A stretch of 64,000 bases of DNA from an uncultured Gemmatimonadaceae bacterium (lineage in GTDB: Bacteria > Gemmatimonadota > Gemmatimonadetes > Gemmatimonadales > Gemmatimonadaceae), in contig CAWFQK010000003.1 in assembly GCA_963817955.1 (NCBI GenBank), forward strand, positions 160,001 to 224,000, read 5' to 3'. Of the stretch, positions 8,120 through 40,163 are shown one piece after another; the stretch's first letter is position 1; each line of letters starts with the position of its first letter. Below the pieces are notes generated by a model. The model worked only from the letters and a program-made list of their open reading frames with translations, searched no databases and had not been told where the DNA came from. A program made the translations under genes and the position numbers.

Positions 8120-8375
8120 CAAACGATTCGCCGTGCGACTGCTCGTGGAGTGCACGCTGCCCGTACGCTGGAGCGATCGGAGGGCCCGCTCCAGGAATGC
8201 GATCGAGGTTCTCGATTTCGGTCGCCACATTGTAATCGCTCTCCGCACGAAGGAAGAATCCATCGCGAGAGCGACTGACGCCCCGTACCGGTTCCCAGAA
8301 CCGTTCTCGCCAATGAGGAAAGTGACAGGTTGCGGAAACGCCAGGCATTCCAGATTTACGATCGCCGGCAGGGAA
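8120..8375 (-). pseudogene. fragments of an ABC/AAA-family predicted ATPase (COG3910-like)
   Basis: Pieces in different frames: PVTFLIGENGSG (truncated Walker A), DGFFLRAES, LHEQSHGESF. Confidence 0.7.
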
Positions 8376-8461
8376 GAGTTCGACACCGCCATCATCATGC
8401 GATGGAATTGCGACGAGGAAGCGCTTGACTGACATGGGAAGTTGGTTGTCTGGATAACGCG

Positions 8462-8840
8462 TCACATCCACCGCGCCAAGCGGATGGTGAACGTGAGCTT
8501 CTCGCCGCTATCTGTCCACGGTCCAGAAAGCTCCAGTGTGTCGCGCTGCACGCGGTATCCCACGACGTCCCACTTCCCCTCATCCGCAGGATCGAGGGAC
8601 ATGATGCTCTCGATCCGCACCGTGTGCTTCGTGGTGTCGCACTCGTACCGTCCCGCATGCGCGCTGGCCCCCTCGAACGTGTCGCGCAGCTCGGCCGGGG
8701 TCACGGTGTCGCGCCGCCACGAAGCGCCATACGCCTTCCACGGCAGGATCGCGTTGTTGCGCGGAGACGGCGGCTGGGGTCCCGGTCGCGAGGATGATCG
8801 AGACGACCAGGGTAAGTACGTGCTGCTGACGCATCGTCAT
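8462..8840 (-). pseudogene. lipocalin-like secreted protein, copy 1, internally deleted and frameshifted
   Basis: Signal peptide + EGVWRFVA in one frame, AHAGRY..DTLELSG..TIRLAR in another; homologous to 10818-11060. Confidence 0.65.
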
Positions 8841-10650: not shown

Positions 10651-10817
10651 AGCTGGGAAATCAGAGGTGGTCGGACAGGTCAAGACAGTGAGGCAGCTGT
10701 CTTAGGTACACGAGCGCAGGGTGATGGTGCAGTGTAGTTCGATGCTTGTCATCCATGCGCTCAACCGATCACGACCTGAAGAATCCATCGCGAGAGCGAC
10801 GTACGCGCCGTTCCTGT

Positions 10818-11060
10818 TCACTTCAGTCGCGCCAATCGGACGGTAAACGTGAGCTTCTCGCCGTTATACGTCCACGCCCCAGAGAGCTCCAGTGTGTCGC
10901 GCTGCACGCGGTGTCGCACTCGTAACGTCCCGCATGCGCGCTGGCCCCCTCGAACGTGTCGCGCAGCTGGGCCGGGGTCACGGTTTCGCGTCTCCACGTG
11001 CGCCCCTTCGGCATGATCGTCGACGACATGTAGCCGTGCGGGTAAAGATCAGGAGGCCAT
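10818..11060 (-). pseudogene. lipocalin-like protein, copy 2, 5'-truncated and internally deleted
   Basis: GYMSSTIMPKGRTWRRETVTPAQLRDTFEGASAHAGRYECDT then jump to RVQRDTLELSG; high nucleotide identity to 8462-8720. Confidence 0.65.
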
Positions 11061-19178: not shown

Positions 19179-19921
19179 TCAGATGAAGGTCATGCGGGCC
19201 GCTTCCCGCTTGCCTTGGGCGAAACCGGCACGAGCGGTGGGGATACGGGTCGCCAGGTCCATCAGGTTCGTGCCCATTGCGGCTCGGGAATCGGCGTCCG
19301 GCGTAATCACCTCGACGCGGCTGCGCTGTTTGCGCAGGTCCTCGACCTGGCTTGCCAAGTCCGTGCGCCATTCCGGTGCCCTGCGCAGGCCCTCGAACTG
19401 TCCGGGTTCTGTCCGGGTCCGTCCGCCCAATGGCGAGAGCACCACGACGTTCGCATAGCCCGAGGCAAGGTCGGCGTTTTCGGCGGAGCGCACGCCACCG
19501 TCTATGTAGCGAGCGCCGTTGATGCGGTGCGTGGGGACCAGACCAGGCAGCGCGCAGCTCGCGGTGACCGCGTCCACCAGCTCGACGCCGGAATCGCGGT
19601 CGAACGCAGCCAACTCGCCGGTGTGTGCGTCGATGGCCGTCACGATCATCGGCCTGTCCGGCCATTCAGGGCGAGGCAACCTGGCGGCGACCGTTGCGCG
19701 CCGCTGTTGCGCCGCGGGTTCGAGTATGGAGTCGCTTTCCAACCCGAACGCGCCCATCGCACGCTGTAGGTCGGCTGCCGAGGTGGTGGCGGCGCCGATC
19801 ACCAGATCGGCGGCCTCTGTCATATCGAGACCACCTTCGGCTAGACCTGCGATGATACCGTCAGCCACGTGTTTCCGGCAGCACCACCACCACCGAGAAC
19901 CAGAGCAACTCTGTGAGTCAT
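19179..19921 (-). pseudogene. patatin-like phospholipase, frameshifted and lacking the catalytic Ser motif
   Basis: ALVLGGGGAAG out of frame with the rest; GTSAG absent; ASCALPG and YIDGG retained. Confidence 0.8.
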
Positions 19922-20056: not shown

Positions 20057-22552
20057 ATGCCTCCTTCCCCGCCACGTGGTACGCCCGTTCCTGACCTGCT
20101 CTACGCGCAGGCCCGCGCCGACCTTGCCGCGGGGCGGTGGCGAAAAGCGCGCGACGCCTTCAAGGAACTCTGCAAAGGTGATCGCGCCACATTCCAGCCA
20201 CTCCTCGTGGAAGCGAATGTCGGGCTCGCCCGCGCCATGCTGGCCAAGGGCCTGATCTCCGACGCACGACAGGTTCTGTCGTACCTCCGGAGGATCGCTT
20301 CTCCGGCAACCATCACCGCGCTCGATGCTGAGATCGCCGCATGTGCAGCGAAGTCGCCGAGCGCCGCTCCCGATCCGGTCGCGCTCCTCGCGGATGGTGC
20401 TCTGGCGCCGGACGAACAGCGCAGGGTGGCGGATCAACTCGTCGTCGCATTCACGAGCGGCAGCATAGACACCGCGTCACCAGCGTCCGCACAGGTGGTG
20501 GCCGATCTTCGCGCGATTCATCAGGCGATCGAATCCGTGTGCCACGGAGACCACGAGCGCGCGATGGAGTATGTGCGTCCCCTCAAACGAGAATCCGTGT
20601 TCGCCCACTGGCGACTCTTTGTGCGTGCGGTGGCAGCGTTTCAGCGAGGTGACGCAGACAAGGCCGTGCAGTACTTCGAGGAATTGCCGGCGTCCTCGGT
20701 GCCTGGGCGGGCATGCGATGCGTGGCTCCTTGCGCTTGGCAAGCAAATCGACACTGGACGAGGCGCCGAATCGGAAGCCGTGCTCGAAGCGGCCGGAACG
20801 CTGGCTGGTGAACCTGGATGGGGCCGTGCGCTGGCCCGGGCCGAGGTGATGTGGCGCGCAGGTAGGCATGCATCATCGTATCGCGCAGTCGCTGGCGCGA
20901 AGGGGTCTTTTCCATCGGACGGGGCGGACTTTTGCTCCGCGCTCTCAGCCTTCTTTTTCAATGCCATCTTCGCGCTTCCGGAAGATCAGCGCTACGAGTA
21001 CGCGGACGCGCTCAGCGAGATCGAAGTCAGCCGCCGCGGGACGAGTCCCACGGAATTGATGCTGATTCGCCGCACCCTGTCGTTGCTGTACGCAGCCGAC
21101 GGCACGGGCGAAATCGACCCATCCTGTCTGCAGGGGATATGGGAAGCGTTCCTCCGGGACCACCAGCGTATTCACGGCACCAACCCCCGCCTCGCCTCGG
21201 CGGGGTTGTGCTGGTTGGGCAAGGTCCTCGCGCAACCGCGACCACATTCACTCCGTCATCGCCCCCGGGCGAAGCGCGACCGCGGCGGCGCTGCCATCGC
21301 CGTGCTGGAGAAGAGCATCGAGCTCGATCCGGGCAATGTCGACGCACATCTCCTGCTGGCGTCGTTGTACGGGACGGGATCGCGCGCGCGCGATCGTAAC
21401 CGCCTCCTCGATCTCATCGCTGTCCGATTTCCGGACCACAAGGAGGCGCTTCTGGCCGTGGGCGCCGGCTGCGTCGATCGCAAAGCCAACGCCAAAGCGC
21501 TCGAATACTACGAACGCGCGCTCACGATCGACCGGTTGGATCCGGCGATGCCCGATCTCGTCGCGACCGCCTGTTTATTACTTGCCGCTCAATTCTATCA
21601 GAAGGGAAAACTCCCGGCAGCGCGGCAAGCATTGACCCGCGCTGACGAATTAGCGGTCGATCACGCCGAGCACTTCGTGCGCAGCCGGTGGTGCCTCGAG
21701 GCGCGGCGCGCCGTACTGGAAATGATGTATGGCGACGCATCCGTGGGCGCAGTGGCGTTGGACGAGGCGCGGGCGAGCAGTCCGTCGCGGGCGGCGTGCC
21801 TGTTTTTCGTGCGGCTCGCCTGGTCGTTCTACTATTCCCGATCTCTCCACCGGCTCTTTCCGGCGCCGCTCAAGGCGGAGCTTGCGCAGGAGGCGACGCG
21901 GGAGTCAAACGGTCGCGATGCAGTGACGCTCGTGCAGCTCTGGCGGTACTGGGGCACTGGTGGGAACTCTCGAGCTCGGACCATGGACGAGGAAGGGTGG
22001 CTCCGGCGGTATCTCAAGGGTGCGGCGAAAACGTCGATGGCCCGCGATGATGCGTCGCGCCTCCTCGAACTCCTCCGGGCTTTCCCCGAGTTTGGCCAGG
22101 AGGCGCGAGCGGTGGTGGCGCGAGCGTTGAAGGGAGATCGAGCGGATCCGTTGTTTCTACTCTATAGGGAACTGCTGCAACCCTTCCCGCGACTTGGACC
22201 GGTGGAATACGAGTCCATCCTGGCGGAGGCTCGTCGCCGCGGCGACGACGCGGCCGAGCGACTTGCGCGCGAGTTAGACAGTCACATCGCGGGGAGCGGC
22301 TCACCACCATTCGCACAGCCATGGGATGATTCCGGACTGGACGAATTTGAGGACGACGATGACGTCGCGGAAGACATCCTTGGGTCTCCAGAGGTAGCCG
22401 CATTCATTGATCTGCTTGCCGCCGCGCCGCCGGGCGAAGTTGCAAAGATGAGAAAGAAGCGCCCACAATGGATGCCCATGGAGCTGTTTGAAATGTTGCT
22501 GACGTTCGCGCGGGCGGGGAGAGGGAATCCCGATCAAGGCGACCTGTTCTGA
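20057..22552 (+). CDS. large TPR-repeat protein
   Basis: 831 aa, helical; AIAVLEKSIELDPGNVDAH and ALEYYERALTIDRLD TPR motifs; acidic linker; ends QGDLF. Confidence 0.85.
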   Translation: MPPSPPRGTPVPDLLYAQARADLAAGRWRKARDAFKELCKGDRATFQPLLVEANVGLARAMLAKGLISDARQVLSYLRRIASPATITALDAEIAACAAKSPSAAPDPVALLADGALAPDEQRRVADQLVVAFTSGSIDTASPASAQVVADLRAIHQAIESVCHGDHERAMEYVRPLKRESVFAHWRLFVRAVAAFQRGDADKAVQYFEELPASSVPGRACDAWLLALGKQIDTGRGAESEAVLEAAGTLAGEPGWGRALARAEVMWRAGRHASSYRAVAGAKGSFPSDGADFCSALSAFFFNAIFALPEDQRYEYADALSEIEVSRRGTSPTELMLIRRTLSLLYAADGTGEIDPSCLQGIWEAFLRDHQRIHGTNPRLASAGLCWLGKVLAQPRPHSLRHRPRAKRDRGGAAIAVLEKSIELDPGNVDAHLLLASLYGTGSRARDRNRLLDLIAVRFPDHKEALLAVGAGCVDRKANAKALEYYERALTIDRLDPAMPDLVATACLLLAAQFYQKGKLPAARQALTRADELAVDHAEHFVRSRWCLEARRAVLEMMYGDASVGAVALDEARASSPSRAACLFFVRLAWSFYYSRSLHRLFPAPLKAELAQEATRESNGRDAVTLVQLWRYWGTGGNSRARTMDEEGWLRRYLKGAAKTSMARDDASRLLELLRAFPEFGQEARAVVARALKGDRADPLFLLYRELLQPFPRLGPVEYESILAEARRRGDDAAERLARELDSHIAGSGSPPFAQPWDDSGLDEFEDDDDVAEDILGSPEVAAFIDLLAAAPPGEVAKMRKKRPQWMPMELFEMLLTFARAGRGNPDQGDLF

Positions 22553-22561
22553 GTATCAACG

Positions 22562-22867
22562 ATGAACCCATATTTCATTCTTGGCGTGCCTCTCGATGCG
22601 GATGATGAGCGCATCCGCCGAGCCTATCTCGACTCGATCAAGCTTGCGCCTCCCGACCTGGACCCCACGCAATTTCAGGCGGTAAGCGCGGCCTACGAGC
22701 AAATCAAGAACGAAGCGAGTCGACATCAGCATATCTTGTTTGATCGAACTCCGCCGGGAGATTCACCGGTGGACGTATTGGTCCGGTACGCCAAGGTTCG
22801 TCCGCAACCACGGGCCCTTCCCCTCGACGCAATGAAAGCGCTTCTCCGCGCATGCACGAAGAACTGA
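22562..22867 (+). CDS. small J-domain-like protein (PPD instead of HPD)
   Basis: NPYFILGV..IRRAY..APPDLDP..FQAVSAAYEQI. Confidence 0.85.
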   Translation: MNPYFILGVPLDADDERIRRAYLDSIKLAPPDLDPTQFQAVSAAYEQIKNEASRHQHILFDRTPPGDSPVDVLVRYAKVRPQPRALPLDAMKALLRACTKN

Positions 22868-23556
22868 TGCCGACCGCAAACGACTCCAATGCCGGAGCGC
22901 TGGAGGACTGGAAGCGCGAGCTTCGTGAGAATGTCGAGCGCTGGCTCGAGTCGCTCGACGACATTCCCGACAGCGATGAGGCTGATGCGGACGAAGTGGA
23001 GACGCCGGATCTCTATTCGTTCTACGGGCAACTTGCTGCCGCAACCACGGAGGCGCGCAAGTCCAATCGCCGGACTGCGGAGGCGTTCAGTCAGTGGAGC
23101 GATACGCTCTCGAAATTCGATGACGAACTGCGGCTGCTTCGCGAACAGGGATCGCGACAGCCGGTGGCAGACAATGACGCGTTGCCACGCGCATGGTGTC
23201 TCGCGCTCGTCGAGATCACGGACCGCATGCATCGGCTTTCAGCGGCGTTCGCGACACCGCCGCGCCGCGCGTGGCTGGGCACCGACCACCAGTGGCACCT
23301 GGCCTGGGAAACCCAACGGCAAGGTTTCGATATTCTCCTGAGTCACGTCGATGCGCTTGTTACTCGCGCCGGATTGACCCGGATACCGGCGCTCCACCAA
23401 CCGTTCGATCCCGCCATGATGTCGGCCGTCATCGCCGAGCCCGACGCCGGCTGGCCACACGACACGGTGACCGAGGAGATAGCCCCAGGGTACCTGTTGC
23501 GCGGCGAGCTTCTTCGAGTTGCGCAGGTCAAAGTCTCCACGCGCGAGCGCCCATGA
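22867..23556 (+). CDS. GrpE-like nucleotide exchange factor
   Basis: TGATG coupling to the J gene; QPFDPAMMSAV..EIAPGYLLRGELLRVAQVKVS C-terminal GrpE motif. Confidence 0.88.
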   Translation: MPTANDSNAGALEDWKRELRENVERWLESLDDIPDSDEADADEVETPDLYSFYGQLAAATTEARKSNRRTAEAFSQWSDTLSKFDDELRLLREQGSRQPVADNDALPRAWCLALVEITDRMHRLSAAFATPPRRAWLGTDHQWHLAWETQRQGFDILLSHVDALVTRAGLTRIPALHQPFDPAMMSAVIAEPDAGWPHDTVTEEIAPGYLLRGELLRVAQVKVSTRERP

Positions 23557-23578
23557 ACCACACATTGCCACACTCGAG

Positions 23579-25330
23579 ATGAATGAGCTGATCGTCGGAA
23601 TCGACCTGGGTACCACGAATTCCGCCCTCGCGGCGGACGTCGATGGCGAAATCAGAGTTATCGATATCCATGGTCAACGGACCATGCCGTCGTGTGTAGG
23701 AATAGATGCGAGCGGCACGCTCGTTGTCGGGGAGGCGGCCAGGAACCAGGCCATCGCGTCGCCCGACGCGACGATTCTCTCCATCAAACGACGGATGGGA
23801 GACGATGTCCGGTTACCGCTCGGTGGCAGGCAGTTCTCGCCTGAAGAACTTTCCTCGTTCATCCTGCGTGAGCTCAAGCTCGAGGGGGAGAAGCAACTCG
23901 GCCAATCAATCAGGAAGGCCGTGGTCACCGTGCCCGCCTTTTTCACCGAACGGCAGCGCAAGGCCACGCAGGTCGCCGGCGAGCTGGCCGGCCTCGATGT
24001 GGTGCGGATCATCAATGAGCCCACCGCTGCGGCGCTCGCTTATGGCGCCGGCGACACCCCCGACGAGACGATCGTCGTCTATGATCTCGGCGGCGGCACC
24101 TTTGACGTGTCGGTCGTTGTCGTGCAGGAGGGAGTGGTCGAGGTCCGCGCGAGTCATGGCGATACGCACCTGGGCGGCGACGACTTCGATCAATTGCTCG
24201 TCGAGCACGCACTCCGCGAGTTCGAGCGTCGTCACGGCACCAATCTCTCGGGAAACGACCGGGTGCTTCGCCGGTTGGGCATCGTACTCGAGCGCGCCAA
24301 ACGCCGGCTGTCCGACGAACCGTTCGTCGCCGTGCGAGAGGAGTACCTGGACGGCACGCATCATCTCGACATGGAGATCGAGCGCGGTGCGTATGAGGCG
24401 ATGATCGCGCCACTCCTTGAGAAGACGCTTCTCTCGGTTCATCAGGCAATGCGGGGCGCGGCCTTGCTGCCGGGCGCCATCGATCGCGTCATGCTCGTTG
24501 GTGGTTCCACTCGCACGCCCCTTGTTCATGCCATGTTGCGTGAGCGGCTGCAGATGGAGCCGAGATGGGAGATAGATCCGGATCTGATCGTCGCGATGGG
24601 CGCGGCAATTCAGGGCGCCGTGCTGGCCGGGCAGAAGCGTCATTCGATTCTCGTCGATATCACACCGCATACGTTCAACACGACTACGCTGGGGATGATG
24701 GACGGCATGACTCGTCTCGTGTCCGTGCCCATCATTCCGAGGAATACCCCACTTCCCGCAAGCAAGTCGGAAGTCTTCTTCACGATGTACGACAATCAGG
24801 ACGCCGTGGAGGTGGACGCGCGCCAGGGCGAGGCGACCGTTCCCGAGCTGAATGCACTCGTGGGCGAGTTCTTGGTGGAGGGACTCAGCCAAGTGCCCGC
24901 CGGGAGCCCCATCGTCGTCCACTTCGAGCTCGACCTCAGCGGCGTGCTCCGTGTGACAGCGACGGAAAAGCAGACCGGTCTGGCGAAGACGGTCACGATG
25001 GACACGCGGGGTACCCACGTGCTGAACGTGGACGAGGCGCGCCGCAACATCGCGTCGTTGCTGGAGCCATTGGTCGTGCGCGCCGAGGACGCGGAGTCTG
25101 ACGACGATGCCAGTGACGCTTCCGAAGCGCGAGAGCGGTTACTGGCGACCGCCAAGGACCTCCGGAAACGTGGCGAAGCATTGCTGGCGAAGAACGTCAA
25201 TGACGATGATGCGCGGGAGATTCGCGATCTGATTCACGCGAGCGCCGGAGCGATCACGGGGCGCGACTGGGGGCACCTCACCGAGATGAACGACAAGTTG
25301 TCCGATCTCGTTTTCTATCTCGAGGACTGA
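23579..25330 (+). CDS. Hsp70-family chaperone (specialised DnaK paralog)
   Basis: GIDLGTTNS, INEPTAAA, YDLGGGTFDVS, HLGGDDFD, LVGGSTR, IIPRNTPLP; ends DLVFYLED. Confidence 0.93.
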   Translation: MNELIVGIDLGTTNSALAADVDGEIRVIDIHGQRTMPSCVGIDASGTLVVGEAARNQAIASPDATILSIKRRMGDDVRLPLGGRQFSPEELSSFILRELKLEGEKQLGQSIRKAVVTVPAFFTERQRKATQVAGELAGLDVVRIINEPTAAALAYGAGDTPDETIVVYDLGGGTFDVSVVVVQEGVVEVRASHGDTHLGGDDFDQLLVEHALREFERRHGTNLSGNDRVLRRLGIVLERAKRRLSDEPFVAVREEYLDGTHHLDMEIERGAYEAMIAPLLEKTLLSVHQAMRGAALLPGAIDRVMLVGGSTRTPLVHAMLRERLQMEPRWEIDPDLIVAMGAAIQGAVLAGQKRHSILVDITPHTFNTTTLGMMDGMTRLVSVPIIPRNTPLPASKSEVFFTMYDNQDAVEVDARQGEATVPELNALVGEFLVEGLSQVPAGSPIVVHFELDLSGVLRVTATEKQTGLAKTVTMDTRGTHVLNVDEARRNIASLLEPLVVRAEDAESDDDASDASEARERLLATAKDLRKRGEALLAKNVNDDDAREIRDLIHASAGAITGRDWGHLTEMNDKLSDLVFYLED

Positions 25331-25331
25331 C

Positions 25332-25667
25332 GTGCGGGTATCCTGTCCGGCGTGCGGCAAGACCATGGTGGCTGCGCTCGCCGCCGATGTGGCGTGCGAC
25401 AGATGCGGATGCGATCTGTCGCGGCTCCGTGATATCCTCGTTGCGGCGGCGGCGCGCCTCCAGTTGGCACGATCGGCCCTGGCGACGGGCGAGTATGAAG
25501 TCGCGCTTTCGTACGCCGACGAGTCGTGGTCATTGGCGCACAATCCACTGTGTGTGGACGTCGCGTGCCTGGCTGCGTCCGCTGGTGGCTACGTCGGCGA
25601 TCTCGTGCGCTGGCAGCGCCGTGGAGGTGGTGCGTCAGACTCTGGTCTATCACCGCGGACTGCGTGA
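25332..25667 (+). CDS. Zn-ribbon + TPR-like small protein
   Basis: GTG 1 bp after the Hsp70 stop; CPACG..CDRCGCDL followed by a helical hairpin. Confidence 0.75.
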   Translation: MRVSCPACGKTMVAALAADVACDRCGCDLSRLRDILVAAAARLQLARSALATGEYEVALSYADESWSLAHNPLCVDVACLAASAGGYVGDLVRWQRRGGGASDSGLSPRTA

Positions 25668-25717: not shown

Positions 25718-25743
25718 CCCGAACACAGCAAGCAACGTTATGC
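25718..25743 (-). repeat. collapsed attC remnant
   Basis: Plus strand CCCGAAC ACAGCAAGCAAC GTTATGC; the upstream gene's TAA lies inside GCATAAC. Confidence 0.4.
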
Positions 25744-26069
25744 GGAAAGGCGTACCGACGCTCCGTGGGCGGCGGCGTACAGCATGTCCGGATCCAGATC
25801 CACCCCATTCGGCCACACGATCGTGCCCGCGTCTGCGTCCACGGAGACGCGCGCGAAGAAGCTCGGATCCTGTAGGGGCGCGATCTTGACCGGCGACTCG
25901 TCCGAGTGGAGCCGACGCCAATTCTCAAGCAGTTCGGCTTCGTGGAGTGTAGTCCACTCCACCACGAGCGCCAGGCTCGAGGCGGAAGGTTGCCGGAGAG
26001 GAGCCCGACTGGTTGGATCTGCACCTACGCCTCTAGGAATACGGCGGTCAGATGTTGTAGGGTGATCAT
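25738..26069 (-). pseudogene. mosaic of HicB start, DUF4160-like and DUF2442-like TA fragments
   Basis: MITLQHLTAVFLEA* | LLSGNLPPRA / LVVEWTTLHEAELLENW..KIAPL | QDPSFFARVSVD..GTIVWPNGVDLDPDMLY. Confidence 0.7.
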
Positions 26070-26459: not shown

Positions 26460-26556
26460 CTCTAACGCCGAGTATCACCTGCAGGCGAATTCACAAGAGC
26501 GGCGGTGAAGCCGCCGTCAACCTTGGCTCGCCTGCCTGGTGCATGCAACGTTAGCC
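26460..26556 (-). repeat. integron attC site
   Basis: Minus strand GGCTAAC GTTGCATGCACCAGGCAGGCGA ... TCGCCTGCAGGTGATACTCGGC GTTAGAG; toxin TAA lies inside the inverse core. Confidence 0.88.
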
Positions 26557-26856
26557 GTCACGGCGAGTGATCGTCCAGTCGATTTCGTCTTGTCGCACAT
26601 GTCGACAGGCGAGAACGACGATCTCGTCGCCGAAGATCTCGTACACCACGCTGTACGGAAACCGGTGAAGCAGTGCGCGACGGACTTGCCCTTCTTCGGT
26701 CACGGCTCGATGCACCTGTGGAAAGATCGCGAGCACCTCAACCGTCGCATCGAGTTCGCCAAGGATGGCACGGCCGAGCCCACGGACCTGTGATTCGTAC
26801 CACCTTCGGGCTTCTCGAATCTCCGCGCGCGCCTCCGGCCGAAACCGAACGCGCAC
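26551..26856 (-). CDS. ParE/RelE-family toxin
   Basis: FRPEARAEIREARRWYE..GLG..RRALLHRFPYSVVY..LACRH. Confidence 0.9.
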   Translation of the reverse strand: MRVRFRPEARAEIREARRWYESQVRGLGRAILGELDATVEVLAIFPQVHRAVTEEGQVRRALLHRFPYSVVYEIFGDEIVVLACRHVRQDEIDWTITRRDG

Positions 26857-27739: not shown

Positions 27740-29177
27740 AGCTCGACTTTGGCCATTTCTCACGTGCTGTGAACGAGGCGCGTATAGCAGCCTCATGACG
27801 TGACGAAGCGGGTGACCTCGTAGACTGACGTATCTCTTTGGCAAGAGTGATCTGTCATGTCTGCGCTGCCGACCCGCTTCGTCTCGATCATCCTAGCATT
27901 TTCCGGACTCTTTCGCCAGCGGACGTGGCGGTACGCGGAACGGCTCCTCGTCGGCGCCATTCTCGCGCCGGGTATTCGCACCGTCGCGAGCGCCCTGCGC
28001 GTCCTCGGGCTGGCCGACGAGCGCCATTTCGTGAACTATCATCGCGTGTTGAGTCGAGCCCCATGGTCCCCCCGTGCGGCGAGTCGGATCTTGCTTGCTC
28101 TGCTCGTGCGCGCCTTCGTGCCGACCGGTCCGATCGTGCTTGGCCTCGACGACACCATCGAGCGCCGGCGCGGCGCCAAGATTCACGCCAAAGGCATCTA
28201 CCGGGATCCGGTCCACTCCTCGCACAGCCACTTCGTGAAAACGAGTGGGTTGCGCTGGCTCTCGGTCATGCTCCTGGCCCCGATTCCGTGGGCGAAGCGC
28301 GTCTGGGCGGTGCCGATCCTCACGGCGCTGGCGCCCTCCGAGCGCTATGCCAAGGAGCGCGGACTGCGGCACAAGCGGCTCACGGATTGGGCACGGCAAC
28401 TGCTCGTCCAACTCCAGCGCTGGTTGCCCGGGCGCGCCCTTATCATGGTAGCCGACGCGAGCTTCGCGGCCTTGGACCTCCTCGCGGCCCTCTCGCCCAG
28501 GATGACCTGCATCACGCGTCCGACTGGATGCCCAGCTCTTGCGCTCGCGCCCGCGGCTGTGCCGGCCCTGCATCACGTCCTCGGTCGTCGAGCGACGGAG
28601 TGGACGCGTCTGACGGTGCCGGCCTGGTATGGCGAGACGAGCCGCGACATCGAGGTCACCTCCGACACCGCCGTCTGGTACTCGCATGGCGTCGCGTTGC
28701 CCATTCGCTGGGTGCTCGTGCGCGATCCGTTCGGCCGGTTCGATCCGCAGGCGCTGCTCTGCACCGATCTCGCGCTCGCGCCGCTCGCCATCGTCCAGTA
28801 CTTCGTGCAGCGGTGGCAGGTCGAAGTCACGTTCGAAGCGGCCCGGCGACATCTCGGCGTCGAGACGCAACGGCAATGGTCCGACCGCGCCATCGCCCGG
28901 ACGACTCCCGTCCTGTTGAGCCTCTTCTCCGTGGTCACGCTCTGCTGGCCCACCGCCTCGTCCGTGCCGGCACGCTGCCAGTCCGCCGCACGGCCTGGTA
29001 TCGGAAACCGACGCCCACCTTCAGCGATGCCCTCGCCGCCGTGCGGGCCGAGCTCTGGCGCCAAGAGGGTTTCCATATCTCCACATCGCGGGCGGACGTG
29101 TCAAAACTCACACGACGCTTGCTCGCACGCCTGACAAGTATCTTATGCGAGGCCGCCTAAACGGCCAAAGTCGAGCT
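27740..29177 (+). mobile_element. IS701-like insertion sequence, degenerate
   Basis: Terminal inverted repeats AGCTCGACTTTGGCC (27740-27754) and GGCCAAAGTCGAGCT (29163-29177) enclosing a DDE transposase. Confidence 0.85.
27857..29160 (+). pseudogene. IS701-like DDE transposase, internally deleted and frameshifted
   Basis: LGLDDTIERR, VADASF, RWQVEVTF motifs; C-terminus (WYRKPTPTFSDAL) in another frame. Confidence 0.8.
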
Positions 29178-34355: not shown

Positions 34356-35417
34356 TCAGGGTTTCGCAGGCGCGTGATCGAGTGGTACCGAATACTGGCC
34401 GGCGAGCATGCGTGATTGCAAAGAGTCGATGTGCGCGCGTGTCGCGGCAGGGACCTTTGCCTGGAGGGCCGGGTTCAGCACGAGCGTAACGACGTGGCTC
34501 TTCTCTCCCAACTCAATGACCCCGGGCTTGAATGTGCCGTCCTTGACCGCGCGCGCGATCGTCAGGAACGCACGCGGGAGATCGATGACGACGCTGGCGA
34601 GCGTGACATCTGGCGCAACATCATTCTGGTTGGAGTTGGAGCCAATGACGTAGGTGTCCTTGGTTTCTCTCGCGGCCTGGAAGACGCCCAGTCCCGCGGC
34701 ATCCGCGTTCTGGAAGATGACGTCGGCGCCTTGTGACAGTTGCGCGAGCGCCTGTTCCTTGCCGGCGCTTACGTCGTCCCAGTTGCCGATGTACGACGTT
34801 ATGATCTTGATGTTGGGATTCACGTCGTGCGCACCTTTCTCAAAGGCCCGAAAGCTTTCGACCACCGGTGGTAACGCGGTTCCGCCGAGCACACCGAGTT
34901 TGTTCGTCTTCGTCACGGACGCGGCGAGGATGCCAGCGAGGTACGAAGCGTCGGCGAAGGCGAAGGTCATGCCTGCGAGGTTGGGACCTGACGTCGTGCC
35001 GGATGTCGTCACATATATGGTATGCGGGAACTCGGGTGCGACGCGGCGGGCTGCGTCCTGAAACTCGAATCCATGACCGAACACCAACGTGTAGCCCTGC
35101 GCGCCGTACTGCCGGAAGTTTTCCTCGAATTCAGCCGGGGTCTTTGTCTGGATATGGCTGACCTGGGCGCCGAGGGAGTCGCGGATTTGTAGGAGGCCTT
35201 GGTAGGCACCGCCGTTCCATGATTGGTCGGAGACCGGTCCCGGCGTGAGCAGCGCGACTTTGAACGACGTGGCGTGCGTGGTGTCGCCAGACGTTGGTTT
35301 CGCCTGACGGTTGCAGGCGGCGATGGCAGCAAGCGTGACGAGCGAAGCCGTCACGATAGAGCCTCGTCGGCCGTTATACAGGCGCCTTAGTGGCGCCAGG
35401 TTGGGTTCAAAAATCAC
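34356..35417 (-). CDS. BMP-family ABC substrate-binding lipoprotein
   Basis: Lipobox IAAC, DQSWN, GHGFEF, GADVIFQ; true start may be GTG 35354. Confidence 0.9.
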   Translation of the reverse strand: MIFEPNLAPLRRLYNGRRGSIVTASLVTLAAIAACNRQAKPTSGDTTHATSFKVALLTPGPVSDQSWNGGAYQGLLQIRDSLGAQVSHIQTKTPAEFEENFRQYGAQGYTLVFGHGFEFQDAARRVAPEFPHTIYVTTSGTTSGPNLAGMTFAFADASYLAGILAASVTKTNKLGVLGGTALPPVVESFRAFEKGAHDVNPNIKIITSYIGNWDDVSAGKEQALAQLSQGADVIFQNADAAGLGVFQAARETKDTYVIGSNSNQNDVAPDVTLASVVIDLPRAFLTIARAVKDGTFKPGVIELGEKSHVVTLVLNPALQAKVPAATRAHIDSLQSRMLAGQYSVPLDHAPAKP

Positions 35418-36324
35418 GCCTCTGCTCCCTGAGGATCAGGTCGAGCATGCGGTCGAGATCGTCGGCAGAGTAGAACGATATCTCGATTTTACCCTTGGAT
35501 TCGCCGGACAAATGGACGTGGACGTCCGTCTGGAGGTACCGGCGGAGGTCGTCCTGAATACGCCGGACCGTCGGATCTACCGTTGAAGGAGATTGTGCCT
35601 TTGGCTGTGTTGCACGCGCCTTGTTCCGCTCGATAGACGGAGGGGCTGGTACGCCGCTGAGCACGCGGACGTATTGCTCGAGCTCGCGGACCGACAGACC
35701 GCGCTGTGCAGCCGCGCTTGCTACTTCGGCCGCAGAGATAGATGGGCTGAGGGCGAGCAACGCACGGGCGTGTCCGGTGGTGAGCGTTCCCTGCTCAACC
35801 ATCTGCTGCACGGCGTCAGGTAATGTGAGCACTCGCAACAGGTTGGTGACCGTTGTGCGGTCTTTTCCAACGACCTCGGCCACCTGCTGCTGGGTGAGTT
35901 GGAACTCGTCTATCAACCGGCGATAGCCGCGCGCCTCTTCGATCGCGTTGAGATTGGCTCGCTGCAGGTTCTCGACGAGCGCGAGCACGAGCATCGTGCG
36001 ATCGTCGAAGCTGCGAACAATGGCCGAGATCTCGGTCCAGCCAAGGTTGGTGGCGGCGCGAAAGCGGCGTTCACCGGCGATGAGCTCATAGGCATCGCCG
36101 CGTTGGCGAACGGTGATTGGCTGGAGCAGTCCGCTCGTTTTCAGCGAGGCCTCGAGCTCGGCGAGCTCGGTGGGATCGAACTCTCGGCGGGGCTGAAATG
36201 GATTGGGCCGAACGCGTGCGATGGCGATGCGCTGGAGGTCGCTCGCCGGCGCGCTCGGCGATGCAGCCGAGCCAATCAGCGCTTCGAGCCCGCGTCCAAG
36301 ACGGCGGGGCTTTTCGCTGGTCAC
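35407..36324 (-). CDS. parB: chromosome partitioning protein ParB
   Basis: NPFQPR, LIAGERRFRA, ENLQRANL, HTH GKDRTTVTN, GHARALL. Confidence 0.95.
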   Translation of the reverse strand: MTSEKPRRLGRGLEALIGSAASPSAPASDLQRIAIARVRPNPFQPRREFDPTELAELEASLKTSGLLQPITVRQRGDAYELIAGERRFRAATNLGWTEISAIVRSFDDRTMLVLALVENLQRANLNAIEEARGYRRLIDEFQLTQQQVAEVVGKDRTTVTNLLRVLTLPDAVQQMVEQGTLTTGHARALLALSPSISAAEVASAAAQRGLSVRELEQYVRVLSGVPAPPSIERNKARATQPKAQSPSTVDPTVRRIQDDLRRYLQTDVHVHLSGESKGKIEISFYSADDLDRMLDLILREQRRDF

Positions 36325-37088
36325 TTGCGCCTCGCGATAAGTTCTTTGGCGACACTCATATACGCCTGTGCGCCGACCGAAGCAACGTCGTACAGGATGA
36401 TCGGCTTTCCGAAGCTCGGTGCCTCTGCTAAACGGACGTTTCTCGGGACGACGGCGTCAAAGACCTGCGATCCGAAATACTCGCGTGCCTCGCTGGCAAC
36501 TTGCCGCGACAGGTTCAAGCGGGCGTCGTACATGGTCAAGAGCACGCCGTCGATCGCCAGTTCTGGGTTTACGCTGTGCTGAACCAGGTGCACGGTGTTG
36601 AGTAGCTGAGACAGCCCCTCAAGCGCGTAGTACTCGCACTGGAGCGGGATCAGCAACGCGTCGGCAGCCGCTAGCATGTTCAGCGTGATCAAGCCGAGCG
36701 ATGGCGGGCAATCGATCAGGACATAATCGTAATTCTGCGCAACGGACGCGACCGCAGTGCGCATCATCAGCTCGCGATTTGGTCGGTCGACAAGCTCGAC
36801 CTCTGCGCCGGCGAGATCGGGCGTTGCGGGCACCACATCCATGTGCTTGAAGTGCACCTGTCGTATTGTCGCGTCCGCGATTGTGCGGTCGCCGATGAGC
36901 ACGTCGTACACGGTGGGTCCGAGCTGATCGCGTAGGAGCCCGACGCCGCTGGTCGCGTTGCCCTGTGGATCGCCATCGATGAGCAGGGTTCTTTGCTCCG
37001 CGGCAGCGAGGCTGGCAGCGAGGTTGACGGCGGTGGTCGTCTTACCGACGCCGCCCTTCTGGTTTGCGATCGCTATGACGCGAGCCAC
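36321..37088 (-). CDS. parA: chromosome partitioning ATPase ParA/Soj
   Basis: NQKGGVGKTT, DPQGN, IDCPPSLG, RLAEAPSFG; start reassigned to GTG 37088. Confidence 0.95.
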   Translation of the reverse strand: MARVIAIANQKGGVGKTTTAVNLAASLAAAEQRTLLIDGDPQGNATSGVGLLRDQLGPTVYDVLIGDRTIADATIRQVHFKHMDVVPATPDLAGAEVELVDRPNRELMMRTAVASVAQNYDYVLIDCPPSLGLITLNMLAAADALLIPLQCEYYALEGLSQLLNTVHLVQHSVNPELAIDGVLLTMYDARLNLSRQVASEAREYFGSQVFDAVVPRNVRLAEAPSFGKPIILYDVASVGAQAYMSVAKELIARRK

Positions 37089-37198
37089 TATTTGCGAAGC
37101 TGAAAGAGGGTGTCGTGCCCACGCAGCGAAACGTCGCATGCGATTGGGGTAATTCGGGCCGACGGCGCCAATCTATTCCCCAGTAGGGCGCGAAACAA

Positions 37199-37214
37199 CG
37201 TGCCACGTGGCACA
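37199..37214. promoter_or_regulatory. putative parS site 1 (variant)
   Basis: cGTGCCACGTGGCACa, perfect 14-bp palindrome upstream of parA. Confidence 0.7.
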
Positions 37215-37227
37215 ACAGCACATGCAG

Positions 37228-37254
37228 GTCCTTCGCCTTCGGCTCAGGATGACA
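37228..37254. repeat. half of a REP-like TGTCATCCTGAG..CGAAGGAC element
   Basis: GTCCTTCGCCTTCGGCTCAGGATGACA between the two parS-like sites. Confidence 0.4.
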
Positions 37255-37261
37255 ACCTCTA

Positions 37262-37277
37262 TGTGCCACGTGGCACT
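37262..37277. promoter_or_regulatory. putative parS site 2 (variant)
   Basis: tGTGCCACGTGGCACt, same 14-bp palindrome, 63 bp from site 1. Confidence 0.7.
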
Positions 37278-37290
37278 TACTTCCGATCGA

Positions 37291-38061
37291 CTATCGCTGC
37301 GGAAGGAATGTCCAGCGTGCCGACACGGTCGTGGTGACAGCCTGCTGCCCCGGCTCGATGGGCGTGGGGGCGAATGCATCCGCCGTCATCCGCGCCATCG
37401 CCATCTCGGTCCGCGGCATCTGGAACGATGAGGTCTGTAGCTCGAGCAAGGGACCGAGCGCTCCGCCGGCAGCTCGCGCGAGCGTCTCCGCGTCGGCCCG
37501 AGCGTTGACCACCGCAGCGGCAAGTGCCGCGCGTCGAGCCGAATCGGCCTTGGATGAGTAAAATTGGAGGCTGGAAATCTGGTTCGCGCCCTTGGCGAGC
37601 GCTGCGTCGATCAGCCGGCCGACGTCGTCCAGCTTTCGAACTTCCGCGCGGACGGTGTTGGTGACGGTGTAGCCAGTCACTCTGGGCGGAATCTGCCCGT
37701 TCGGACTGTACTGCATCTCCGGCGACACACTGTAGTTGATGGTCGATAGCTCGTCGCCCGTGAGACCGAGCGCGCGAAGCGTGTCGAGGATCGCCCGTTG
37801 ACGGCGAGCGTTATCGATGCCGGCAGCAGCAGCGGTCGTTGCCCGGCTCTGTACTCCGATAAAGATTGTTGCGCGATCGGGCGAGACGCGGGCTTCGCCC
37901 GAACCCGTCGTGATGATCTGGGGCGGCGCAGCGGCGGTCTGCGCCGAAGCGCGCGTCGTCGTCGCCGAGGCTGCCGCGGCGACGACGCCTGCCGTGAGTA
38001 TCCAGGTACGCAAACCAAGTCTCCGTGTGAGTGGGTGTGGCGAGCTGACGAGTGCCCGCAA
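37291..38061 (-). CDS. SIMPL (DUF541) domain protein
   Basis: Signal peptide, GEARVSPDRA, GYTVTNTV, GANQI, PIEPGQ. Confidence 0.9.
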   Translation of the reverse strand: MRALVSSPHPLTRRLGLRTWILTAGVVAAAASATTTRASAQTAAAPPQIITTGSGEARVSPDRATIFIGVQSRATTAAAAGIDNARRQRAILDTLRALGLTGDELSTINYSVSPEMQYSPNGQIPPRVTGYTVTNTVRAEVRKLDDVGRLIDAALAKGANQISSLQFYSSKADSARRAALAAAVVNARADAETLARAAGGALGPLLELQTSSFQMPRTEMAMARMTADAFAPTPIEPGQQAVTTTVSARWTFLPQR

Positions 38062-38133
38062 GGCTCGTGCTCGATATTAATGCGCAAGTCGATACTAATT
38101 GCGAGCGCGCAATGGTCTGAGACCCTGAACGGG

Positions 38134-40074
38134 TCAGCGCGCCTCCGATCTGCGGCGCCGCTTCTCGATCTCGAGCACGAGGTTCTGTAGGTCCGTGGGG
38201 CTGACACCGGGAATGCGCGCCGCCTGGGCCAACGTCCCCGGGCGAATGGCGGCGAGCTTCTGCCGCGATTCGAAGGACAGCGACACCATGTCTCCGTACG
38301 GAACGCTCGCATCGAGGGCGAATTGCCCCAGGCGACGCATCTTTGCTGCCTGATCGCGCTCGCGGATGAAGTAGCCCGCGTACTTGAGCTCCAGTTCCGC
38401 CGTGATGATCGCATCGCGCTGCAGGTCCTGTCCGACGTGCGCGGCATCAAACAACTCTGATAAATAAACTCTCTGACGCCTGGCTACCTCGGCGATCTTC
38501 ACGGAATGCGCCAGCGGCGCGCTGTCGGCGCGCACCAGCAGTGGATCGGCCTGCGCCGGTACGATGCTCGTCGCCTCGGCCAGTGCGCGCGCTCGGTCTT
38601 CGTGCGCGAATCGTACGTCGATCATCGCGCGCTCGGTGTCGCTGAACAACCCAGCTTCGAGTGCGATCGGCGCAAGGCGGCGCAGGGCGTTGTCCTGGCG
38701 CACCGTCAAGCGGAACTCGGAACGCGACGTGAACAAGCGATACGGCTCGTCGACGCCGCGGGTGACCAGATCGTCGATCAGCACACCGATGTACGACGTC
38801 TCGCGCCCGAGCACGAGGCTCGAAGCGCCGAGGGCCCGGCGCGCGGCGTTCAATCCGGCAACGACGCCCTGCCCTGCGGCTTCCTCGTAGCCCGTGGTGC
38901 CGTTGATCTGTCCTGCGAAGAACAGGCCTGGCAGCGCCTTCACCTGCAGGGTCGCGTCGAGCTGCGTCGGCGGGTAGTAGTCGTATTCAATCGCATATCC
39001 GGCGCGCGTCATGCGTGCCTGCTCCAGGCCCGGCACGGTATGCAGTACGTCGAGTTGTACCTCCGCGGGAAGTGACGTGGAGAGACCGTTGACGTACAGT
39101 TCCGTCGTGTCGTGGCCCTCCGGCTCGAGGAAGAGCTGGTGGCGTTCCGCCGCAGGGAACTTCACGATCTTGTCCTCGACCGAGGGACAGTAGCGCGGTC
39201 CGCGAGCACCAATGGCGCCACCATACATTGCCGACCGGCCAATGTTCTCCTGGATCACGCGCTTGCCGTCCTCCCCGAGGAACGTGATCCAGCACGGCAT
39301 CTGCGTCGGATGGCGAGTGACCTCGCCCACTCGCCGAGCCGTCGTCCAGAAGTGCGACCACGAATAATCGAACGCTTCGATCTCCGTTTCTTGCCGAGCG
39401 AGGCGCGAGTAGTCCACAGATCGACCATCGATGCGCGGCGGCGTCCCTGTCTTGAATCGATCGACGACGAGTCCCAGCTGCTCGAGTTGCTCGGCGAGAT
39501 GTGTCGCCGACGATTCCCCTGCGCGGCCTCCAGCGATCTTCGTCTCAGTGCCGATGTAAATGCGCCCACGCAGGAACGTTCCGGTGGTGATCACAACGGA
39601 GGTCGCGCCGAAGCGGCGTCCCTCGAGCGTTTCCACGCCGGCGACGGCGCCGGTTGCCGAGTCGGTGAGCAGGCGCGCGACGGTGCCCTGGATTGTCTGA
39701 AGCGCCGCGTGCTCCTCGAGGAGAGCCCGAACGGCGCGCCGATACAATCCGCGATCGCACTGCGCGCGCGGCGACCACACCGCGGGCCCCTTACTGCGAT
39801 TCAGCATGCGAAATTGCAGCGAGGCAAGGTCGGTGGCGCGCGCCATGATCCCGCCCAACGCATCGACTTCCCGGACGACGGTGCCCTTCGCCACACCGCC
39901 GATGGCGGGATTGCACGACATCTGACCGATGGTCTCGAGCGCGCTCGTCACAAGCGCCACCCGCGCGCCGGCGCGTGCGGCCGCGACGGCGGCCTCGGTG
40001 CCGGCGTGTCCCGCCCCAACGACGAGAACGTCGAACGTGGCTTCGAGCTTTCGGGTCGCGTGCGCGGTGGTCAT
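38134..40074 (-). CDS. mnmG: tRNA uridine-5-carboxymethylaminomethyl synthesis enzyme MnmG
   Basis: VVGAGHAG, MSCNPAIGG, RFKTGTPPR, GPRYCPS, AGQINGTTGYEEAA. Confidence 0.96.
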   Translation of the reverse strand: MTTAHATRKLEATFDVLVVGAGHAGTEAAVAAARAGARVALVTSALETIGQMSCNPAIGGVAKGTVVREVDALGGIMARATDLASLQFRMLNRSKGPAVWSPRAQCDRGLYRRAVRALLEEHAALQTIQGTVARLLTDSATGAVAGVETLEGRRFGATSVVITTGTFLRGRIYIGTETKIAGGRAGESSATHLAEQLEQLGLVVDRFKTGTPPRIDGRSVDYSRLARQETEIEAFDYSWSHFWTTARRVGEVTRHPTQMPCWITFLGEDGKRVIQENIGRSAMYGGAIGARGPRYCPSVEDKIVKFPAAERHQLFLEPEGHDTTELYVNGLSTSLPAEVQLDVLHTVPGLEQARMTRAGYAIEYDYYPPTQLDATLQVKALPGLFFAGQINGTTGYEEAAGQGVVAGLNAARRALGASSLVLGRETSYIGVLIDDLVTRGVDEPYRLFTSRSEFRLTVRQDNALRRLAPIALEAGLFSDTERAMIDVRFAHEDRARALAEATSIVPAQADPLLVRADSAPLAHSVKIAEVARRQRVYLSELFDAAHVGQDLQRDAIITAELELKYAGYFIRERDQAAKMRRLGQFALDASVPYGDMVSLSFESRQKLAAIRPGTLAQAARIPGVSPTDLQNLVLEIEKRRRRSEAR

Positions 40075-40163
40075 GCCAAAAGGTATGGTGCCGCACCACA
40101 TGCAGGGAGCACGCGACGCTTGCATATATTGCAGGCCGTCAATTGCACGCAGGGAGTAGAGAG

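Follow-up and report, generated by a model that had tools for sequence, protein, structure and literature searches.

A probably horizontally acquired HscC-like Hsp70 operon with a predicted split J co-chaperone and a candidate sliding-clamp motif

Why would a bacterium keep a second Hsp70 machine, complete with its own co-factors, apart from its housekeeping chaperones? The question is raised by a five-gene operon in a 64,000-nucleotide stretch of DNA, hereafter the window, from an uncultured Gemmatimonadaceae bacterium (assembly GCA_963817955.1, contig CAWFQK010000003.1, positions 160,001 to 224,000). The operon encodes a large tetratricopeptide repeat (TPR) protein, a short J-like protein, a GrpE-like nucleotide exchange factor, an Hsp70 and a small Zn-ribbon protein (Table 1). 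Our analysis shows that it is a real variant among specialised Hsp70 systems, one for which a link to the replication clamp is proposed and can be tested. The TPR and J proteins look like the two halves of a split co-chaperone that would carry the dedicated Hsp70 to clamp-loaded DNA, a reading based on the clamp motif of the TPR protein and on the predicted complex of the two proteins.

All five plus-strand genes were found to be open, with gaps of 9, -1, 22 and 1 bp for the start codons chosen in the initial annotation. Pfam searches identified TPR repeats in the first product, DnaJ in the second (E 1.6e-7), GrpE in the third (7e-17) and HSP70 in the fourth (1.6e-138), while the last contains two CxxC pairs and gave weak Zn-ribbon matches (best E 0.003). 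Comparison with locus L006 yielded dN/dS values of 0.09-0.40 across all five genes, which are intact and under purifying selection. DNA similarity to L006 is confined to positions 20121-25621 of the window, and therefore the operon itself is the moving unit. To follow the gene order across genomes, a profile from 19 close TPR homologues was used to collect 342 representatives (50% identity, E < 1e-30), and 82 loci were examined (37 genomic, 44 metagenomic, plus L002). In 21 of these the contig stops within the TPR gene. In the 61 with downstream DNA, the TPR gene is followed by the J gene in 61, by grpE in 60 and by the Hsp70 gene in 56, counts that do not represent independent events since several metagenome loci are near-identical. 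The five loci without Hsp70 run out at contig edges within 1.4 kb. Thus, the order TPR-J-GrpE-Hsp70 is kept in every related locus long enough for testing. The Zn-ribbon gene comes next in 39 of the 50 loci having a complete Hsp70 gene, and the 11 loci without it form one clade; this gene is dispensable.

The model of the TPR protein is an all-helical solenoid (predicted local distance difference test, pLDDT, 91.4), of which residues 824-831 fall below 50. Fold searches returned generic solenoids only (best Foldseek TMq 0.26, best VIA Z 13.0) and barely covered residues 650-831; an Atlas search with residues 755-831 gave no usable match, and the model shows no evident catalytic domain. In a first alignment of TPR homologues, Q827 and L830 are invariant and F831 nearly so, behind a variable linker. 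For motif analysis 137 of 147 homologues of at least 750 amino acids (aa) were aligned, 10 near-duplicate or doubtful sequences being left out. With loose patterns, a clamp motif was present within the last 15 residues in 111 of the 137 (101 in the five-residue and 10 in the six-residue form), and a strict pattern was matched by 83 of the 147. All controls remained below 1%, be it internal windows (40/7339), shuffled tails (231/27400) or ends of open reading frames (ORFs) of the own genome (15/3968). The most frequent residue at each tail position reads QLDLF, which is the consensus reported, along with the five- and six-residue motif classes, in the accessible part of 10.64898/2026.05.27.728225. 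Within the host genome a stricter pattern picked out 18 ORFs. Four of them are annotated, as MutS, PolB, DUF72 and a protein that weakly matches Pol IV, and the remainder includes likely chance matches. The protein with Pol IV matches, which lie below the cut-off, carries the identical QGDLF. Host DnaN (G000:C3, about 102.6-103.7 kb) can be aligned to its E. coli counterpart across the segments that we take to form the peptide pocket. From the motif we infer that the TPR tail docks on the beta sliding clamp. RuvB of the host (L127, G000:C2:946805-947830) also ends in a clamp-motif-like sequence, QETLF.

The J-like protein scores 31.7 bits against PF00226 (cut-off 27.8) and matches J domains in the PDB with E 2e-11; the best fold-search hit has an E-value of 2.5e-3. 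HPD was found in none of 61 J proteins, its place being taken by PP[DE] in 38, SP[DE] in 16 and TP[DE] in 7. As all 61 copies carry [PST]P[DE], the substitution is a fixed family trait and not decay. Fused forms of the J protein were absent among 8000 longer candidates, which is weak evidence. Modelling of TPR residues 11-825 together with the J protein gave a complex score of 0.81 (0.80-0.81 in three runs), compared with 0.00 for the best control. Among solved complexes, 116 of 157 reach the mark applied to this score, and among mismatched pairs 2 of 215; with the alignments used here these counts are approximate. At least 98% of contacts agree between runs, and the partner pLDDT is at least 88. 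In the model, mainly J residues 58-100 lie against TPR residues 126-386, and the interface pairs of lowest error fall on conserved positions (W266, L296, A262 and F299 of the TPR protein, P69 and L59 of the J protein). In a plain comparison of means, conservation is 0.62 there versus 0.41 overall. Residues 12-50 of the J protein, presumably the stretch whose helices contact Hsp70 in characterised J proteins, lie wholly outside the predicted interface. Matches of the J profile to solved structures stop at or before position 70 (60 of the 63 shown), hence it seems unlikely, as judged by sequence search, that the model recalls a known complex of this kind. The C-terminal extension of the J protein is thus predicted to bind the TPR solenoid. 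The initial annotation had cast the TPR protein as client, sensor or guarded effector of the chaperones; the model and the tail argue instead for a scaffold that has a putative clamp-docking end and serves for targeting within a split J co-chaperone. Conserved basic patches (R29, R32, K36, K40 and K462, R475, K480) are also found on the TPR protein, outside the J interface.

The Hsp70 of the operon is 38% identical to host DnaK, 34.8% to E. coli HscC and about 35% to HscA. It retains D8, K70, E171, T199 and D201 as well as the hydrophobic linker. DnaK residues 76-101 and the D211 loop are deleted and the R56-E264 pair is missing, an L1,2 insertion is present (4-8 residues as an HscC trait), and helix B is partly exchanged for a variable acidic stretch. 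Indels, an altered helix B and loss of R56-E264 are among the HscC traits listed in the accessible part of PMC8215388, according to which the 76-101 deletion is also found in many DnaKs. The protein falls below the TIGR02350 DnaK cut-off (476 versus 822.55 bits) and belongs to a clade separate from DnaK, in line with the proposal of a non-housekeeping Hsp70. It groups with E. coli HscC at an ultrafast bootstrap (UFBoot) value of 85, on a long branch and with a single HscC row, and the quick tree does not resolve this grouping. By these sequence traits the operon Hsp70 is HscC-like and not a DnaK. It departs from HscC proper on two counts, since the operon provides its own GrpE and the J partner is not a membrane protein of the DjlC type. 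The housekeeping set of the host is encoded separately, dnaK on contig C2 and grpE-dnaJ, the latter with HPD, on contig C4. The C-terminus of the operon Hsp70 is nearly invariant and of the [FY]LE[DE] type in both the five- and the four-gene versions (LFYLED in 19 of 29), and is a possible docking signal that might bind the TPR protein in the manner of EEVD. An additional, very divergent Hsp70 of 496 aa was observed in Verrucomicrobium sp. BvORR106 (L060, G439:C123).

Named carriers of the operon are mainly Verrucomicrobiota, two Verrucomicrobium sp. genomes being the cultured ones; others belong to Gemmatimonadaceae, Omnitrophota, Acidobacteriota, Deltaproteobacteria, Syntrophorhabdaceae and Ca. 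Anammoxibacter. The operon was present in 1 of 30 congeners of the host and in 8 of 150 genomes from the order of genome G845, the best order sampled. It was found in 0 of 400 sampled genomes of its own phylum and in 0 of 400 from the phylum of genome G439, which is to be read as not found in those searched, because just two candidates per genome were scored. On these counts the operon is accessory in each sampled group. In the quick tree, the operon Hsp70s of the host and of one Gemmatimonadaceae genome nest among Verrucomicrobiota rows (support 98), whereas the DnaK of the host pairs with the DnaK of that same genome. This discrepancy is read as probable horizontal gain, pointing to transfer between phyla. 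Together with the conserved gene order and the separate Hsp70 clade, it agrees with the earlier description of a mobile, self-contained machine. On viral contigs a search with alignment A3 gave 78 pattern matches, none of which was confirmed as a relative, and no plasmid gave a tblastn match to the TPR protein of the window.

Plasmids carry only a sister family, which comprises 364 members among the 8000 candidates scored and has cultured carriers in Nostoc, Anabaena and Calothrix. A Nostoc plasmid encodes a complete sister operon (Table 1), and an Acaryochloris plasmid has its first four genes in matching order. The sister Hsp70s join the clade of the operon Hsp70 at UFBoot 100, HPD is absent from their J proteins as well, and the final gene of the Nostoc operon matches the profile of the Zn-ribbon gene (E 4e-9). 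The TPR profiles of both families align over 446 columns with a probability of 95.6, a likeness that is partly generic to TPR proteins. Sister TPR proteins (P0178-P0297) often end in a basic stretch followed by GF[QR][ED]L(F), and 69 of 115 match GF.[DE]L; this tail is perhaps a lineage-specific docking motif.

On this basis we propose the following mechanism. The C-terminal extension of the J-like protein would bolt it to the TPR solenoid while its J helices stay free, making the two proteins one split class-C co-chaperone, and the TPR tail would occupy the peptide-binding pocket of the beta clamp. The tethered J domain may then stimulate the cognate HscC-like Hsp70, with the [PST]P[DE] loop perhaps insulating it from DnaK. 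The Hsp70 would grip a protein that the TPR scaffold presents at the replication fork or behind it, and dislodge or refold it before being reset by the dedicated GrpE. The likeliest role would be to clear or reshape a protein complex where replication has stalled or has just taken place. That the operon encodes a private remodelling machine aimed at clamp-loaded DNA, serving as an accessory remodeller in genome maintenance, is a claim for which we see an even balance between right and wrong. More tentative, and somewhat short of an even balance, is the fuller picture of a horizontally spread, clamp-riding machine in which an HPD-free TPR-J pair brings its own Hsp70 and GrpE to pull apart a stalled replisome of the host or the replisome of a phage or plasmid. 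If true, a chaperone would be added to the partner set of the clamp, and a J domain without HPD could drive a matched Hsp70, challenging a rule of Hsp70 biology. It would also offer a way into what HscC-type Hsp70s do and why loss of HscC causes UV sensitivity, as described in the accessible part of PMC8215388.

Several observations weigh against a clamp-directed remodeller. The J protein is devoid of the HPD histidine, and this loss may mean that it does not stimulate Hsp70 at all. The tail of the window protein itself has Gly at motif position 2 and is non-optimal, since an aliphatic residue is favoured there according to the accessible part of 10.64898/2026.05.27.728225. Moreover, the motif is missing in 26 of 137 TPR homologues, and the tail of the cyanobacterial TPR proteins differs, with a canonical clamp motif in 1 of 115. 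No replication or repair gene recurs in the neighbourhood, and a LexA-type box (four patterns) was found upstream in 0 of 70 loci. Finally, a patchy distribution with horizontal movement is no less characteristic of conflict systems.

This last point leads to defence by the same architecture, in which the clamp-tethered TPR protein would sense replication proteins by which a phage or plasmid exploits or blocks the clamp of the host. The Hsp70 would dismantle the foreign replisome or trigger growth arrest. We consider this unlikely, though it deserves weight. The scattered occurrence and interphylum transfer described above fit it, as do the plasmid location of the sister operon, in one case by an integrase and IS607, the toxin-antitoxin (TA) cassettes and the attC-like site in the window region, and the Hsp70/GrpE modules of predicted conflict systems (accessible parts of PMC7159879 and PMC12642450). 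The initial annotation had suggested an anti-phage role from the TA neighbours, and the wider neighbourhood does not speak for it. Flanking ORFs of 74 loci were picked heuristically, 482 in total; the nearest 300 were compared with PADLOC (E 1e-8; 1e-25) and the nearest 150 with NCBIfam. Metabolic or housekeeping genes make up most of the named neighbours, alongside a few insertion sequence (IS) elements or TA genes, and no core gene of restriction-modification, BREX or CBASS systems was matched among the 300 of 482. None of the five operon proteins matched PADLOC 2.0 at E 0.1, and the TPR model has no evident catalytic domain. A candidate-defence neighbour (PDC-S01, S03, S27, S37, PD-lambda-2B or Cas3) was found in 8 of 74 loci (L015, L027, L032, L082, L087, L088, L090, L099), after exclusion of RecQ-like, kinase, ABC-ATPase and methyltransferase matches deemed generic. 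As this count has no background control, it neither shows nor excludes defence, and the defence context is weak. A PDC-S01-type gene adjoins the operon, on either side, in the metagenome loci L087, L088, L090 and L099, one of which also has cas3.

The clamp may also play no part. A specialised chaperone set whose QxDLF tail is a vestige or has a different binding partner, and whose TPR-J pair feeds a specific cytosolic client to Hsp70, much as proposed for HscC-DjlC at the membrane, would account for the homologues without the tail, for the different tail of the sister family, and for the HscC indels and tentative HscC grouping of the Hsp70. The tail, however, agrees with the clamp consensus position by position, is preceded by a linker rich in Pro and Lys and switches between both known classes, and we regard this explanation as rather improbable. 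Least probable, with only a slim chance of being correct, is a chaperone-guarded clamp poison, by which the TPR protein would block the clamp pocket like SocB unless J protein, Hsp70 and GrpE hold it inactive, be it as the guard of the initial annotation or as selfish addiction. SocB does inhibit replication via a clamp-binding motif (accessible part of PMC9690074), and all genes of the operon are in tight translational coupling. A conserved solenoid of 831 aa with a large J-binding groove, however, far exceeds what a pocket blocker needs, and homologues without the motif keep the operon, e.g. at L013 and L015. A clamp-directed Hsp70 remodeller is our preferred reading.

The layout of the locus is given in Table 1. 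For grpE the start at 22852, overlapping the J gene by 16 nt, is more likely, because an in-frame ATG at -16 is present in 27 of 60 homologous loci. A 9-codon ORF (window 23553-23582) overlaps the stop of grpE (ATGA) and the start of the Hsp70 gene and could couple their translation across the 22-bp gap. CIRCE was found upstream in 0 of 70 loci, three enriched upstream palindromes vanished once related loci were merged into 54 groups, and promoter and terminator scans remained at chance level. Beyond the operon core no gene recurs among the genome loci; a polyprenyl-synthase neighbour in three loci does not represent synteny, as the two scanned belong to different subfamilies.

Table 1. Features of the operon locus in the window and of the cyanobacterial sister operon.
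Feature	Position	Strand	Remarks
TPR-like alpha-solenoid protein, 831 aa	20057..22552	+	acidic and flexible linkers near C-terminus
QGDLF, candidate beta-clamp-binding motif at C-terminus of TPR protein	22535..22549	+	family mode QLDLF
J-like protein, 101 aa	22562..22867	+	J fold ~2-57, PPD replacing HPD, helical extension 58-100
GrpE-like nucleotide exchange factor	22852..23556	+	234 aa from 22852; 229 aa from 22867
HscC-like Hsp70, 583 aa	23579..25330	+	catalytic residues retained, lid altered, conserved [FY]LE[DE]-type C-terminus
Zn-ribbon (CxxC...CxxC) and short helical repeat, 111 aa	25332..25667	+	
Patatin-like pseudogene, outside unit	19179..19921	-	divergent from operon; frame change near 19868
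DUF2442-matching remnant, outside unit	25738..25965	-	convergent with operon
Sister operon TPR-DnaJ-grpE-Hsp70-TPR	L075 4209-10211, Nostoc plasmid NZ_CP151103		beside integrase and IS607

Broken genes on the opposite strand flank the operon on both sides, as first described: a frameshifted patatin-like gene and the DUF2442 remnant. The surroundings had also been called a decaying cassette array, and this holds in part. A single convincing attC-like hairpin lies at 26460-26556, just past a minus-strand ParE-type toxin and its addiction-module antitoxin, the whole (26460-26856) being an integron-type TA cassette with no integrase close by, and an integron integrase is encoded on a separate contig (G000:C4:1373624-1374562), with a further attC-like site about 1.1 kb downstream of it. 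The region can be called integron-flavoured because of this hairpin and the integrase; pattern-and-fold scans detected no attC-like hairpin at either end of the operon, that at 26460-26556 being the nearest. Repeats of 42-102 nt (85-93% identical; window 8253-8721 and 10778-10998) are leftovers of a duplicated cassette, and the variable region also contains a plus-strand DDE_5 transposase ORF (27857-29134), presumably IS701-like. The variable region is origin-proximal, since on this contig the operon is separated by about 10 kb from parB, parA and gidA (35407-40125) and by about 77 kb from dnaA-dnaN; such a position is probably incidental.

A description of this operon was not found in the full-text literature searched, and operon tables in supplements (e.g. 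of PMC7159879) could list it. Among the closest known systems is E. coli HscC (Hsc62) with DjlB and DjlC, encoded in the locus ybeQ-ybeR-djlB-ybeT-ybeU-djlC-hscC. HscC confers UV resistance according to the accessible part of PMC8215388, a point in favour of the genome-maintenance reading. Both systems combine an Hsp70 with specialised indels, a private J partner and repeat-protein neighbours, and both are sporadically distributed. In contrast to HscC, which uses no GrpE, the operon includes its own; its J protein, of 101 aa and with [PST]P[DE], bears a predicted TPR-binding extension and is not a tail-anchored membrane protein like DjlB and DjlC, and its scaffold terminates in a clamp motif. 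With the housekeeping DnaK-DnaJ-GrpE set the operon has the three component types and the ATPase residues in common, but its Hsp70 differs from host DnaK in the low identity given above and in forming its own clade, and the operon is without a CIRCE-like site. A J domain on a TPR scaffold is found in eukaryotic P58IPK/DNAJC3 and DNAJC7, and Shewanella AtcJ is a short J protein docked via a C-terminal extension. Unlike in these proteins, TPR and J parts are encoded by separate genes in the operon, which also supplies a private Hsp70 and GrpE, and the J part lacks the His; P58IPK gave a generic fold match only to the TPR model (Z 9.6, root mean square deviation 16.1). Clamp partners with QL[S/D]LF (Pol III, Pol IV, MutS, Hda and the toxin SocB) have a terminal motif on a flexible linker, in five- and six-residue forms, as does the operon TPR protein, for which binding is predicted from the motif; no chaperone co-factor is among the partners described in the accessible parts of 10.64898/2026.05.27.728225 and PMC9690074. 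The GAP1-N2 systems (Kaur et al. 2020, PMC7159879), as far as the accessible part describes them, centre on a GTPase and FNIII repeats, of which the operon loci have no recurrent gene, but like the present operon they unite a dedicated HSP70 and GrpE with a J protein (FNIII-DnaJ) or TPR protein in patchily distributed operons.

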